From: Planctomycetota bacterium
Lineage (GTDB): Bacteria; Planctomycetota; PLA2; JAEUHO01
Reading direction: 5' to 3'
Length of the DNA stretch: 64,000 bases
NCBI GenBank assembly: GCA_030065025.1
Contig: JASJDY010000014.1
Coordinates: 13,113-77,112 of the forward strand
In this document: positions 7,807 through 15,098 of the stretch, piece after piece
Layout: each line of letters begins with the position of its first letter
How positions within the stretch are numbered: the stretch's first letter is position 1
Position numbers and translations under genes: made by a program
Notes under the pieces: model-generated
Told to the model about the DNA's origin: nothing
The model's database searches: none
The model's input: only the letters and a program-made list of their open reading frames with translations

Positions 7807-8274
7807 ATGGCCGCCTCGTCCACCCGTCGCTCCGCTCTCCGCGTCGTGGGCTGGATCCTGCTCGCGCTGGGCCTGCTCGCGTGGCCCGTGGCCCGCGCCG
7901 TGGATGCCGCTTGGGGCACCGACGTCACGCTGCTCTCCCGCCTACGCACGGCCGAGGAGCGCGAGGCTTGGCGGCGCGGTGGCTGGGATCCCGCGACGGG
8001 CCTGCCTGGACTCTACGGCGTGAAGGACGCTAGGGATCGCGTACGCCTCGTGGGTGTGGAGGAGGAGCGGCTCGTCCGCCCCGAAGAGGATCCCACCCAG
8101 GCTCTGCTGCTGCTCGATGCGCGCGGCGGCCAGGGTCTGCTCCGTGCGCGCGAACTCCGCTTCCGCGCCGCCCTGATCGGGCTCGCGCTAGGTCTTCTCG
8201 GAACTCTGCTGCTCCTGCGAGCGCGGCGTCTCAGCCGCGCGTCTCGGACTTCGCCACCTGCACCGCCTCGATGA
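7807..8274 (+). CDS. Hypothetical membrane protein, two terminal TM helices
   Basis: ORF with hydrophobic helices near both ends. Fills the gap between genes. Confidence 0.55.
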   Translation: MAASSTRRSALRVVGWILLALGLLAWPVARAVDAAWGTDVTLLSRLRTAEEREAWRRGGWDPATGLPGLYGVKDARDRVRLVGVEEERLVRPEEDPTQALLLLDARGGQGLLRARELRFRAALIGLALGLLGTLLLLRARRLSRASRTSPPAPPR

Positions 8275-8452
8275 GGGAGTCGACCTCCGCCGTCTTCGTG
8301 GCGTGATCGGTAGCCTCGGTGATGCGGTGCATGTGATCGACGAGCTCGACCTTGTCGGCGCAAGGCACACAGAGCCGGATCTTGGTGGGCGTCATCTCGT
8401 GGAACACGGTGCGCTCATAGTCGGCATGGCCGCGACAGACGTTGCAGAGCAT
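8231..8452 (-). CDS. Small putative zinc-binding protein (CxxC-x21-CxxC)
   Basis: Strong RBS GGAGGGAGG. MLCNVC...LCVPC followed by a helical tail. Confidence 0.7.
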   Translation of the reverse strand: MLCNVCRGHADYERTVFHEMTPTKIRLCVPCADKVELVDHMHRITEATDHATKTAEVDSLIEAVQVAKSETRG

Positions 8453-9606: not shown

Positions 9607-9613
9607 GCGAGCG

Positions 9614-9657
9614 CAAAACGAACCACGGGCGGCGAGCCGTGAGGCGCGCCGCCCGTG
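9614..9657 (-). terminator. Intrinsic terminator between convergent genes
   Basis: 11-bp stem CACGGGCGGCG/CGCCGCCCGTG (9624-9634/9647-9657), followed by a U-rich run on the minus strand. Confidence 0.6.
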
Positions 9658-9679
9658 ATCGCGTCGTCGTGACGAGCGA

Positions 9680-10579
9680 CTACTTGTCGGTCGTCTTGCC
9701 GTCCTTGCCGCAGGGGCAGGCGGTCTTCTCGCAGCCACCGCACTCGGACATGGGCTTGCCGGTGCAGGGGCAAGCCTTCTTCTTCGCGGAAGCGTCGCCC
9801 GTCGTGCCGGCGTCGCCGGTCGGAGCCGAGGCGCCGGAGGCCTTGCTCTTGTCGCAGCCACCACCGGAGCAGTCCTTCGACTTGTCGCAGCTCTTGGCCT
9901 TGTCGCAGCCGCCGCAGCTCGACTTCTTGCCCGAGGCGTCGCCGGTGGTGCCGGCGTCGCCCGTCGCCGCCGAAGCGCCGCCGGACTTGCTCTTGTCGCA
10001 GCCGCCGCAGCTCTTCGACTTGTCGCAGCCACCGCCGGAGCAGTCCTTCGCCTTGTCGCAGCTACCGCAGCACTTCGAGCTCTTCGCCGTCGCGCCGCTC
10101 GTGCCGGCGTCGCCCGTCGGAGCAGCCGCGCCGCCCGACTTGGACTTGTCGCAGCCGCCGCAGCTCTTGGCCTTGTCACAGCTCGCGGCCTTGTCGCAGC
10201 TGCCACAGTCGCTGCCGCTCTTGGCGGCCATCATCTTCTTGAAGTAGCCGATGGTGCGATCGGCGTTCCAGCCGTCGGCGACCATGGCGTCGCGCAGGCC
10301 GGCGAGCTTCGCGTCCTTGCTGGCGAACCAGGCGCGCCACTGCTTCTCGCCCTTCTCGGTCGAGGGGCAGGCGCAGTCGTCGGACACGTGGCCGGCAACC
10401 CACTTCATCATCGAGTGGATCGGCGACTCGGTGGCCGTCTCGGGCTTCTTCGCGACGGTCGTGGGCGCCGTCTTCGTCTCGGCCGCGGGCTTCGCGACGG
10501 GGGCATCCTCGCCGGCGAAGGCGAGACCACCGGCCACGAGAGCGAGGCCGAGGGCGAGGGCAACGATCGTGTTGCGCAT
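9680..10579 (-). CDS. Secreted cysteine-rich repeat protein
   Basis: Signal peptide MRNTIVALALGLALVAGGLAFA. About 25 Cys, mostly in repeated CxxCDK / CDK units separated by three TGDAGT(S/T)G spacers. RBS GGAG. Confidence 0.8.
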   Translation of the reverse strand: MRNTIVALALGLALVAGGLAFAGEDAPVAKPAAETKTAPTTVAKKPETATESPIHSMMKWVAGHVSDDCACPSTEKGEKQWRAWFASKDAKLAGLRDAMVADGWNADRTIGYFKKMMAAKSGSDCGSCDKAASCDKAKSCGGCDKSKSGGAAAPTGDAGTSGATAKSSKCCGSCDKAKDCSGGGCDKSKSCGGCDKSKSGGASAATGDAGTTGDASGKKSSCGGCDKAKSCDKSKDCSGGGCDKSKASGASAPTGDAGTTGDASAKKKACPCTGKPMSECGGCEKTACPCGKDGKTTDK

Positions 10580-10785
10580 ACGGTGATTCTCCAGATCGAG
10601 GGCTTGCGAGAGTCAGCTGCCGCTGCGCCCGGACTTCCGGCGCCGCCGCGGCTCATATGGGGCGCGATGGTAGCAGCGTGCGCCGCCGCCGCTGCACTCG
10701 GCCTGGGACCAACGACCGAGCGGGCGACAGGGCCCAGGAACTGGGGCTCTAAGGGGTGAAGCGGCGATGAAGACGCCCGCCCGCA

Positions 10786-13727: not shown

Positions 13728-14981
13728 TCAGCGCGTCACGGGGACCTGGAGCTCCCAGAACTGCTGGGAAGCGGGCACCATCGGGCTGTTGTAGCCCATG
13801 GCGCGGAAGTCACCGGCGCGCTCGTAGCCGTTCTTCGCGATGTGCTCTTCGATGAGCCGCTTGGCGGTGGCCATGTCGCTCATGGAGCGGCGTCCACGCA
13901 TGCCGATGCTCAGCACCGTGATCGGCTCGAGGTCGAGCACGGCGACGCGTCCCTGCGCGCCGGCCTTGCCCTGATCCGGACGCTCGTAGAGGAACGCCAT
14001 GTCGCGCGCCCGCATCTTGCCGTCCATGGTCATCTCGACGGGTGCGGTCATCTCGACCTTGTTCTTCTTGATGTGCTGGAACAGGGTCCAGAACGCCATC
14101 TGCCCGCCCTGGGCGCGCGCCGCGCGGTACTGCGGGTAGCGCTTCTCGACGATACGGCCCACCGGGCCGGGCTGCGGGAAGCCCTTGGGTAGCGCCGCCT
14201 CCATGCGGGGCTTGAAGTTGGCGTTGGCCAGGATGCTGTCGAAGGCGTGGCGCAGGTTCCAGGCCTGCTTGCTCGCGTCCGCAGCCGGCTTCTGCATGGC
14301 TGCGGCCAGCGTCATGCGGTCCCAAGCACCGACGGACTCCCCGGCGTCCATCAAGCGCTGGGCGGCCTCGTGGTAGACGCGCGCGCAGCCGGCCACATCA
14401 CCGTGGTTGTACATCGGTACGCCCCGGTCGAGCGCGGCGTGGATGACCTTGGAGGGATCCATGCGCGTGGTCCGGGCGGTCATCGGACGCTCCTTCTTCG
14501 CCACGGGCTTGCCCGGGGTGAGCGTGGGGATCAGGACGCGATCGATCACGTGAATGACGCCGTTGGTGGTCATGACGTCGGCCTGGATGACGTTCGCGCG
14601 GCCGATGCGAAGGCCGACCGCCAGGTCATCGCCGCCAAGGGTGCGCGCCGACCGCACGGGCAGGAGGTTCTTCGACAGCACCCGCCCCTTCACCACGTGG
14701 CGGAGCAGCAAGCCGCGGAGCGCATCACGATCCCGGAGGAGCCCCTTCAGGGCGCCGGCGGGCAGTGCCGCGAAGGCCTCGTCCGTCGGGGCGAAGACGG
14801 TGAGCGGGCCCGGCGCCTGGAGCGCCTCGACGAGGCCGGCAGCCTCGACCGCCTTCACGAGCGTCGTGAACCGGCCGTCGGCGACCGCGGTCGTCACGAG
14901 GTCGCTGCCGTCCGAGGCGGACGCGGGGGCCGAGGTCAGGAGCAGGAACGCCATGAGGCACGCGGGCAGGATCGTCTTCAT
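13728..14981 (-). CDS. Secreted fasciclin (FAS1) + helical + SOUL heme-binding fusion protein
   Basis: Signal peptide from MKTIL. FAS1 motifs TVFAPTDEAF and NGVIHVIDRVL. C-terminal SOUL-like MTAPVE, MAFLY, YNSPM. Confidence 0.8.
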   Translation of the reverse strand: MKTILPACLMAFLLLTSAPASASDGSDLVTTAVADGRFTTLVKAVEAAGLVEALQAPGPLTVFAPTDEAFAALPAGALKGLLRDRDALRGLLLRHVVKGRVLSKNLLPVRSARTLGGDDLAVGLRIGRANVIQADVMTTNGVIHVIDRVLIPTLTPGKPVAKKERPMTARTTRMDPSKVIHAALDRGVPMYNHGDVAGCARVYHEAAQRLMDAGESVGAWDRMTLAAAMQKPAADASKQAWNLRHAFDSILANANFKPRMEAALPKGFPQPGPVGRIVEKRYPQYRAARAQGGQMAFWTLFQHIKKNKVEMTAPVEMTMDGKMRARDMAFLYERPDQGKAGAQGRVAVLDLEPITVLSIGMRGRRSMSDMATAKRLIEEHIAKNGYERAGDFRAMGYNSPMVPASQQFWELQVPVTR

Positions 14982-14987
14982 GCGCGC

Positions 14988-15031
14988 ATTGTGCAGCCTG
15001 AGCGGGGTATGTCTAGATAAATATCTGTACA
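14988..15031 (-). promoter_or_regulatory. Sigma70-like promoter of a probably leaderless transcript, plus a 22-bp near-palindromic operator
   Basis: Minus strand TAGACA-16 nt-CACAAT-6 nt-ATG(14981). Dyad TGT-nn-AGATA-AA-TATCT-nn-ACA at 15010-15031 in an AT-rich patch. Confidence 0.5.
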
Positions 15032-15098
15032 CTTATCGACCCGACGGGAGGTGCCCTCGACCGTCCTCGGCCGTACCCTGCCCCATCGAGGGAGGCCG

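Follow-up and report, generated by a model that had tools for sequence, protein, structure and literature searches.

An exported cysteine-repeat protein on an orphan four-helix domain in one family of uncultured Planctomycetota: a possible metallothionein-like thiolate array

Architecture of the cysteine-repeat gene and its product

The stretch of DNA considered here (the window) comprises 64,000 nucleotides of a planctomycete contig (JASJDY010000014.1, positions 13,113 to 77,112; assembly GCA_030065025.1), and the gene in question lies at window positions 9680–10579 on the minus strand, where a complete open reading frame (ORF) of 299 codons and a TAG stop encodes the protein P0001. This protein consists of an export signal, a small helical domain of orphan fold and a long tail of cysteine-rich repeats, and we tentatively favour the view that it works outside the cytoplasm as a metallothionein-like thiolate array. 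At 70% GC, the GC content of the window, long ORFs often arise spuriously, and several others overlap positions 9680–10579; the three codon positions of this frame have GC contents of 53, 64 and 93%, a pattern missing from the overlapping alternatives. The frame is taken as coding because of the 93% GC at its third positions, together with around 48 representative homologs, and 9680–10579 is a real gene, no chance ORF of a high-GC genome.

The architecture, the type of export signal and the composition of the product are established directly. Reading of the sequence gives a Sec-type signal peptide at residues 1–22 (10514–10579; this and all further features of the gene are on the minus strand), MRNTIVALALGLALVAGGLAFA followed by GED, with an n-region, an h-region, an AxA site, a single arginine and predicted cleavage between AFA and GED, and finds in it neither a twin-arginine motif nor a lipobox cysteine. 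The N-terminus is kept throughout the family alignment (A1) as MRN..(A/G)xA before the cleavage site and G(D/E)(D/E)AP after it. As the signal is of Sec rather than Tat type, the chain would be exported unfolded and free of cofactor, and binding of an Fe–S or other pre-assembled cofactor was rejected on this ground. The signal is followed by a Pro/Ala/Thr/Lys-rich linker (residues 23–49; 10433–10513), which is predicted to be disordered, with a predicted local distance difference test score (pLDDT) of ~40, and which varies in length in A1.

Residues 50–121 (10217–10432) make up the four-helix N-terminal domain (N-domain), which carries the motifs PxH, CxCP, WRxWF, LRD and DGWxAD. The AlphaFold2 model of the full-length protein places helices at residues 53–65, 75–86, 93–101 and 106–121 with a pLDDT of about 90, and the domain modelled alone reaches a pLDDT of 87 and a predicted template modelling score of 0.73, the pLDDT of the domain spanning 87–94 over the two models; in the full-length model residues 1–48 and 124–265 are below 50, and the terminal cysteine motif rises to ~73. 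Nine residues of the domain are invariant in the family alignment (T50, P53, W84, R96, D102, G103, W104, A106 and F113). Its only cysteines are C69 and C71, both in the loop after helix 1 (CxCP), where C71–P72 reaches at least 90% conservation, unlike the variable C69. Scans of the protein against Pfam-A (hmmscan, E up to 1) and NCBIfam returned no family, a negative that is limited by HMMER composition filters, which may suppress low-complexity matches, and a Pfam scan of ten diverse relatives gave sub-threshold noise only. Likewise, the family profile had no match among PDB sequences at E up to 10, and Foldseek against PDB found nothing for the full model and a meaningless best E of 4.4 for the N-domain model. 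The possibility of a UBA-like or peptidoglycan-binding-like N-domain, raised by a sub-threshold TAP_C match in the homolog P0019 and by a DGW..T..F pattern, was dropped as Foldseek showed no such folds. A word-index search with the N-domain only, the check that had been proposed when this gene was first read from sequence alone, returned close relatives only, and the N-domain is a confidently predicted orphan domain, confined to one uncultured planctomycete family.

The remaining 178 residues (122–299) form the tail, which holds 23 of the 25 cysteines of the protein. These are gathered into blocks at C125–C143 (five), C170–C194 (seven) and C222–C242 (five) and a terminal CPCx7CGGCx4CPC motif (six), separated by spacers that contain, in order, TGDAGTSG, TGDAGTTG and TGDAGTTG. 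Block 1 (residues 122–147; 10139–10216) reads CGSCDKAASCDKAKSCGGCDKSK and contains the invariant C125 and C134, with C143 at least 90% conserved in A1, and spacer 1 (148–169; 10073–10138), SGGAAAPTGDAGTSGATAKSSK, has G150, A151 and D157 conserved to the same level. Block 2 (170–198; 9986–10072) has its seven cysteines in the arrangement CCGSC..C..C..CGGC and is followed by spacer 2 (199–221; 9917–9985), ending in ATGDAGTTGDASGKKSS; block 3 with its five cysteines (222–246; 9842–9916) and spacer 3 (247–269; 9773–9841), ending in PTGDAGTTGDASAKKKA, lead to the terminal six-cysteine motif CPCTGKPMSECGGCEKTACPCGK and a Lys/Thr/Asp end (270–299; 9683–9772), the sequence of the motif being CPCTGKPMSECGGCEKTACPC. 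C171, C185 and C242 are also at least 90% conserved, and across A1 the conserved positions of the tail are cysteines together with a few spacer residues. The tail contains nine CDK, six CxxC, three CxC and one CC motif, and its composition is dominated by Gly (35), Lys (29), Ser (27), Ala (24), Cys (23, or 13%), Asp (19) and Thr (13); it has a single Met and is devoid of aromatic, aliphatic and His residues. There is no CxxCH, the haem-binding motif of c-type cytochromes, anywhere in the protein.

At the DNA level, three units of ~112 nucleotides (nt) recur at spacings of 144 and 153 nt with 67–77% identity, and Tandem Repeats Finder reports 27-nt periodic arrays within the repeat region. As the units have diverged to this degree, the duplications that built the tail are old rather than recent. 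These results confirm the sequence-only reading of the gene, which had described a secreted protein with a signal peptide, a small folded domain (CACP, WFAS, DGW), about 23 cysteines in repeat blocks with TGDAGTTG spacers and a CPC..CGGC..CPC end, repeats visible in the DNA and no cytochrome motif.

Distribution of the family and its cysteine-free paralogs

The conservation and phyletic range of the family are likewise established directly. An exhaustive phmmer search over 1.84e9 representatives recovered 48 proteins, and a word-indexed search of 5.8e9 clusters gave 38 homologs, labelled ‘hypothetical protein’ wherever the source names them; the named records all come from metagenome-assembled genomes of uncultured Planctomycetota or Planctomycetia. 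In a sample of 401 Planctomycetota genomes, the Cys-type gene is confined to the planctomycete family of the window, where 15 of 17 genomes have it; the 384 genomes outside, which include all six of the sister family in the same order, have none. One marginal match among the sampled genomes spans the signal and linker region only, and genome G391 matches solely through a cysteine-free paralog.

Within the family the tail is conserved in character and variable in extent. Members carry from one to about five cysteine blocks, and P0004, P0006, P0019 and P0039 each consist of two complete N-domain and tail modules. The motifs differ from one member to another (CDKSK and CDKAA pentapeptides, CEKGA, CAKGD and CPSGG), a CPCTGK-type ending is found in 19 of 79 collected sequences, and the spacer AAAPTGDAGxTGDA, shared among closer relatives, gives way to generic Ala/Gly/Asp/Ser linkers in distant members. 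Over 63 family tails the mean cysteine content is 14% (7.5–21%), and F, W, Y, I, L, V, M and H together average 1.6%. Conserved cysteines, combined with varying block number and two-module proteins, suggest that capacity, and not a fold, has been under selection. The total number of cysteines is odd in 38 of the 63 proteins and even in 25, and this lack of an even bias speaks against a defined fold in which all disulfides are intramolecular. Net tail charge rises with cysteine number (r = 0.63, slope 0.43), a correlation that is confounded by tail length and relatedness, with many tails at or below zero net charge, and it is not counted as evidence. A search with the tail only returned this family and no other, so that the tail type is unseen on any known domain, and known metal domains give no hint of its function by association.

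The same N-domain is also found on proteins that have no cysteine at all (hhalign probability 99.4%, E 5e-22). These Cys-free paralogs comprise P0068–P0071 together with genes from four genomes that belong to the same planctomycete family; the genome of the window has none. In P0068–P0070 the tails hold 23–26 Met and 13–14 His among Gly-rich runs, such as GPHGMHGSQGMGPMGMPGPHGMGQHGMGPMGMGGMH and GMHGSQGMGPMGMPGPHGMGQHGMG. Since one and the same N-domain bears tails of the Cys type and of the Cys-free type, it appears to be a reusable carrier of disordered tails, and two of the tail types are enriched in classical sets of soft-metal ligands, namely Cys, or Met and His. The paralogs at loci L032 (1314–2405, minus strand) and L035 (1936–2958, plus strand), as well as P0068–P0071, share a central I(I/M)WNDGxGW and basic KRVRIK-like segments near both ends, and in L032 and L035 the paralog directly adjoins a same-strand ORF that resembles a metallophosphoesterase (GDIH..GNHD motifs, read by eye). 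The contigs around P0068 and P0070 are too short to inform on context.

Transcription unit, neighbouring genes and redox setting

We read the cysteine-repeat gene as monocistronic with its own, inferred promoter. A Shine–Dalgarno sequence, GGAG (10589–10592), stands 9 nt ahead of the ATG, and CTGGAG(A) recurs directly 5′ of the start codon in most orthologs. The candidate −10 hexamer TACCAT (10667–10672), preceded by TGC, lies ~90 nt 5′ of the ATG; the pattern TA[CG][CG]AT is found 59–118 nt 5′ of the start in nine of the 17 upstream regions of orthologs, where 500 shuffles gave 0.6 on average and 4 at most. A scan of the locus for consensus sigma-70 promoters gave no match, the 5′ untranslated region shows no unusual structure (z = −0.13) and an Rfam scan of the locus returned chance-level matches only. 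Downstream, a 13-bp GC-rich stem-loop (9622–9659) followed by UUCGUUUUG forms an intrinsic terminator (9613–9659) with a minimum free energy of −43.7 kcal/mol (z = −4.06; none of 200 shuffles as stable), and a terminator scan of the locus also marks a terminator-like site at this hairpin, which sits in the 74 nt between the cysteine-repeat gene and the convergent DUF2891 gene. On its other side, 206 nt separate the start of the gene from the upstream serine dehydratase gene. Just past the stop codon of the latter, and 5′ of the candidate promoter, lies an inverted repeat, CCTGGGCC ... GGTCCCAGG (10690–10760), which is most simply the terminator of the serine dehydratase gene; a similar repeat is present in the relatives L022 and L021.

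The wider neighbourhood in the window holds an ABC-F ATPase, a 73-residue CxxC ORF, DUF2891, L-serine dehydratase, a NAGPA-family protein and a fasciclin–SOUL fusion. With DUF2891 and L-serine dehydratase as the immediate flanks, the remark in the sequence-only reading that no modifying enzymes are adjacent holds. This gene order is kept only in close relatives and so reflects shared descent, and distant family members have entirely different neighbours, with no conserved partner gene. The 73-residue ORF (8231–8452, minus strand), between the ABC-F and DUF2891 genes, is zinc-ribbon-like, with two CxxC pairs (CNVC...CVPC) and no Pfam match, and relatives L001 and L002 have ORFs alike in size, and likewise with no Pfam match, in the same neighbourhood. 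The exported fusion of fasciclin and SOUL haem-binding domains (13728–15032, minus strand) is kept in synteny in relative L001.

Some relatives show other surroundings. In a subclade of three diverged genomes a DsbD gene is divergently adjacent to the family member, with genes for an AhpC/Redoxin protein, ZnuA and a GDT1-family cation transporter nearby, an arrangement that persists down to 57% DsbD identity. In another lineage (L004: 9002–11374, plus strand), P0021 is followed on the same strand by a 121-residue protein of no assigned family, a 324-residue MauE-family membrane protein and a 280-residue weakly thioredoxin/Redoxin-like protein, and these may be a dedicated thiol–disulfide module. 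At L040 (7642–8031, plus strand) a 129-residue HMA-domain protein with the metal site LDCGGCE is encoded divergently, 0.7 kb from the family member, preceded by an apparent degenerate first HMA half.

As for the host of the window, its genome encodes a fusion of a VKOR homolog and a thioredoxin-like domain with a CGHC motif, the two parts joined by a long Pro-rich linker, and this fusion is likely to be the extracytoplasmic disulfide oxidase of the organism (G000:C79:32244–33433; L036: 945–2132, plus strand; the ORF runs off the contig end). Two genes for heme-copper oxidase subunit I were found in the same genome, and a DsbA of the Thioredoxin_4 type was not detected in it. The VKOR fusion and the heme-copper oxidase genes together indicate an aerobe with an extracytoplasmic disulfide-forming system.

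Possible roles of the cysteine tail and comparison with known systems

Metallothioneins as a class are characterised by cysteine in the company of Lys, Ser, Gly, Ala, Asp and Thr, and it is this composition, throughout the family, together with the arrangement of CxxC, CxC and CC in discrete blocks of 5–7 cysteines and the conserved end motif CPCx7CxxCx4CPC, that leads us to favour, with some reserve, a metallothionein-like role for P0001, in which an orphan carrier domain would bear an exported thiolate array that captures metal outside the cytoplasm. The conservation of cysteines and of capacity, the absence of an even bias in cysteine number and the export of an apo chain by the Sec route also count in its favour. 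The Met/His/Gly-rich tails of paralogs point the same way, as they represent the other soft-metal ligand set, known from SilE/PcoE-type sponges. Further support comes from those relatives in which the gene adjoins thiol-reductant or metal genes (DsbD/ZnuA/GDT1, HMA and MauE/thioredoxin-like), and from the two heme-copper oxidase genes, which imply a demand for copper.

What we infer is metal binding by thiols that would be kept reduced or protected by the metal itself; the identity of the metal, the stoichiometry and the role of the N-domain given here are likewise conjectural. Sec export and signal cleavage would leave the four-helix N-domain (residues ~50–121) as a carrier or docking module for a tail without a hydrophobic core, in which four clusters of 5–7 cysteines, flanked by Asp, Lys, Ser and Gly, are strung on flexible Ala/Gly/Thr/Asp linkers. 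The apo tail would be disordered, and each block could then enclose ions of soft metals, of which Cu(I) or Zn(II)/Cd(II) are the most plausible, in a tetrathiolate site or a small metal–thiolate cluster, with neighbouring Lys and Asp tuning the thiol pKa and balancing cluster charge. The beads would act independently, one chain buffering or sequestering roughly 4–10 ions, and the N-domain would dock the protein or pass the metal on.

Several observations weigh against a role in metal capture. The protein has no sequence or fold match to metallothionein, Csp, HMA or any other metal-binding family in Pfam, NCBIfam, PDB or by Foldseek, and the cysteine density of the tail is below that of classical metallothioneins. 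No metal-homeostasis or metal-regulator gene is adjacent in the genome of the window or in most relatives, and metal or redox neighbours occur in ~3 of 10 independent contexts, were noticed post hoc and are suggestive only. Comparison of the regions upstream of 17 orthologs for a conserved operator brought out only GC-rich k-mers and the −10-like element, and no metal-regulator operator. Nor is every Cys-free tail rich in Met and His, that of the L032 paralog being Arg/Gly/Pro-rich. Lastly, in an aerobic host with a VKOR oxidase, exported cysteines could be oxidised to disulfides.

This redox setting is the strongest argument for a disulfide-based explanation, in which the protein is a cross-linked constituent of the envelope or matrix: the VKOR–thioredoxin fusion would oxidise the cysteines, intra- and intermolecular disulfides would draw the tail into a covalent proteinaceous layer and the N-domain would anchor it to an envelope component, in the manner of planctomycete YTV wall proteins or of the chlamydial cysteine-rich outer-membrane complex. 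Taken by itself this is somewhat improbable, and yet nearly as likely as metal capture; of the three interpretations offered by the sequence-only reading, a metal sponge and a cross-linked structural protein are both live, sequence evidence alone being unable to separate them, and the third, a multi-core precursor, is disfavoured. Apart from the VKOR–CGHC fusion and heme-copper oxidases of the host, cross-linking is consistent with the documented presence of cysteine-rich YTV proteins in planctomycete cell-wall preparations (PMC8567305, PMC12673574), odd cysteine counts are compatible with intermolecular links, variable repeat number is typical of structural repeat proteins and the MauE/thioredoxin-like and DsbD neighbours would fit any thiol–disulfide-dependent maturation. 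However, DsbD supplies reductant and not oxidant, the Pfam scan matched neither YTV (PF07639) nor keratin-associated proteins, and the tail is Pro-poor and Asp/Lys/Ser/Gly-rich, unlike Cys/Pro-rich wall proteins. A membrane anchor, a lipobox and a sorting motif are all missing from the protein, the family is limited to one planctomycete family and does not track envelope type, and the existence of entirely Cys-free N-domain paralogs implies that the partner of the N-domain needs no disulfide chemistry.

Metallothioneins are also known as thiol antioxidants, and a different, rather unlikely role for the tail is that of an extracytoplasmic thiol redox buffer or sacrificial antioxidant, its 23 thiols cycling between reduced and disulfide states and being re-reduced through a DsbD-type pathway while in the periplasm it absorbs oxidants, or carries metalloids (arsenite, for example) or sulfane sulfur. 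The many CxxC pairs of the tail, the aerobic host, the DsbD and peroxiredoxin/Redoxin-family genes adjacent in one subclade and the MauE and thioredoxin-like genes adjacent in the L004 lineage would all suit such a buffer, but the CxxC motifs have no thioredoxin-fold context that could give a tuned redox potential, and redox neighbours are absent from the window and from most relatives. Such a role overlaps heavily with metal binding, from which it is hard to tell apart, and also with cross-linking. Very much less probable still is a polyprotein in which the TGDAGTTG spacers are processing sites and the cysteine blocks are freed as small Cys-rich peptides. The regular alternation of blocks and spacers, and the conservation of AAAPTGDAGxTGDA in closer relatives, are what one might expect of it; against this, some ten contexts contain no adjacent protease, radical-SAM, lanthipeptide-type or other maturase and no dedicated exporter, the Sec signal and conserved folded domain are unlike precursors of ribosomally synthesised and post-translationally modified peptides, the blocks are not identical cores (their DNA units being 67–77% alike) and the spacers, which decay to generic linkers in distant members, lack processing-site character.

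Returning to metal capture, P0001 would in its mode of action be closest to metallothioneins and SilE/PcoE, and more distantly to Csp1, while belonging to none of these groups. Its tail resembles metallothioneins (SmtA/BmtA, MymT, Pseudomonas metallothioneins and the modular eukaryotic proteins) in composition, with no aromatic residues or His, in CxxC, CxC and CC motifs and in predicted disorder without metal, and its blocks recall the bead-like modular cysteine clusters of multi-domain metallothioneins. The bacterial metallothioneins described so far are not known to carry an export signal. In contrast to the operational size of metallothioneins (below ~10 kDa and essentially all Cys-rich), mature P0001 has ~277 residues and ~27 kDa, and 72 of these residues belong to a folded, Cys-poor domain and 27 to the linker; the tail has 13% Cys compared to 20–30%, and no Pfam metallothionein profile matches the protein. 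Known bacterial metallothioneins are treated as intracellular (PMC7558416), and P0001 is predicted to be Sec-exported.

SilE and PcoE are exported, intrinsically disordered proteins, proposed to act as periplasmic soft-metal sponges (PMC5008109). Their Met/His ligands are of the same types as in the Met/His-rich paralogs, whereas the P0001 tail lacks His and has a single Met. Both are small proteins of sil/pco resistance operons; the chromosome carries the P0001 gene, by contrast, as a monocistronic unit away from any efflux gene, and without homology SilE and PcoE are functional analogues only. Exported Csp1 of bacteria uses Cys thiolates to store many Cu(I) ions (PMC7558416), and it does so as a Tat-exported, tetrameric, pre-folded four-helix bundle with a Cys-lined core, in contrast to P0001, in which the four-helix domain has two loop cysteines only, the other cysteines lie in a tail predicted to be disordered and the signal is of Sec type; there is no Pfam or Foldseek match to Csp1 or Csp3. 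On the structural side, chlamydial OmcA and OmcB are small, Cys-rich exported proteins that form disulfide-cross-linked envelope material in a relative within the PVC superphylum, and they are a lead only, OmcA being a lipoprotein and P0001 having no lipobox. The YTV wall proteins are, like P0001, exported, cysteine-rich and planctomycete-specific repeat proteins (PMC8567305, PMC12673574), and differ from it in their YTV tripeptide repeats, in the PF07639 domain that P0001 fails to match at E up to 1 and in their much wider phyletic range.

The gene is thus a conserved, lineage-restricted variant, of two-part architecture, on the theme of Cys-rich exported, metallothionein-like proteins. A bolder and at present doubtful proposal is that P0001 is the founding member of a lineage-specific carrier and payload system, an orphan four-helix domain, newly arisen inside one planctomycete family, displaying interchangeable disordered soft-metal-binding tails of the Cys or the Met/His type outside the cytoplasm, whose Cys branch would be the first Sec-exported metallothionein-like metal buffers described in bacteria. 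Characterised bacterial metallothioneins are few and discussed as intracellular, and the buffering of periplasmic metal is credited either to pre-folded Csp1 or to small Met/His proteins. Were P0001 indeed a modular, Cys-based thiolate array exported by Sec, it would be a different way of handling thiophilic metals outside the cytoplasm, and one would have to ask how an aerobic envelope lets its thiols stay reduced. A tail that serves as a disulfide cross-linker would in turn be a chemically distinct component (Asp/Lys/Ser-rich and Pro-poor) of the poorly understood proteinaceous planctomycete envelope. On either reading, the N-domain is an orphan fold of one uncultured family, reused with different disordered tails.

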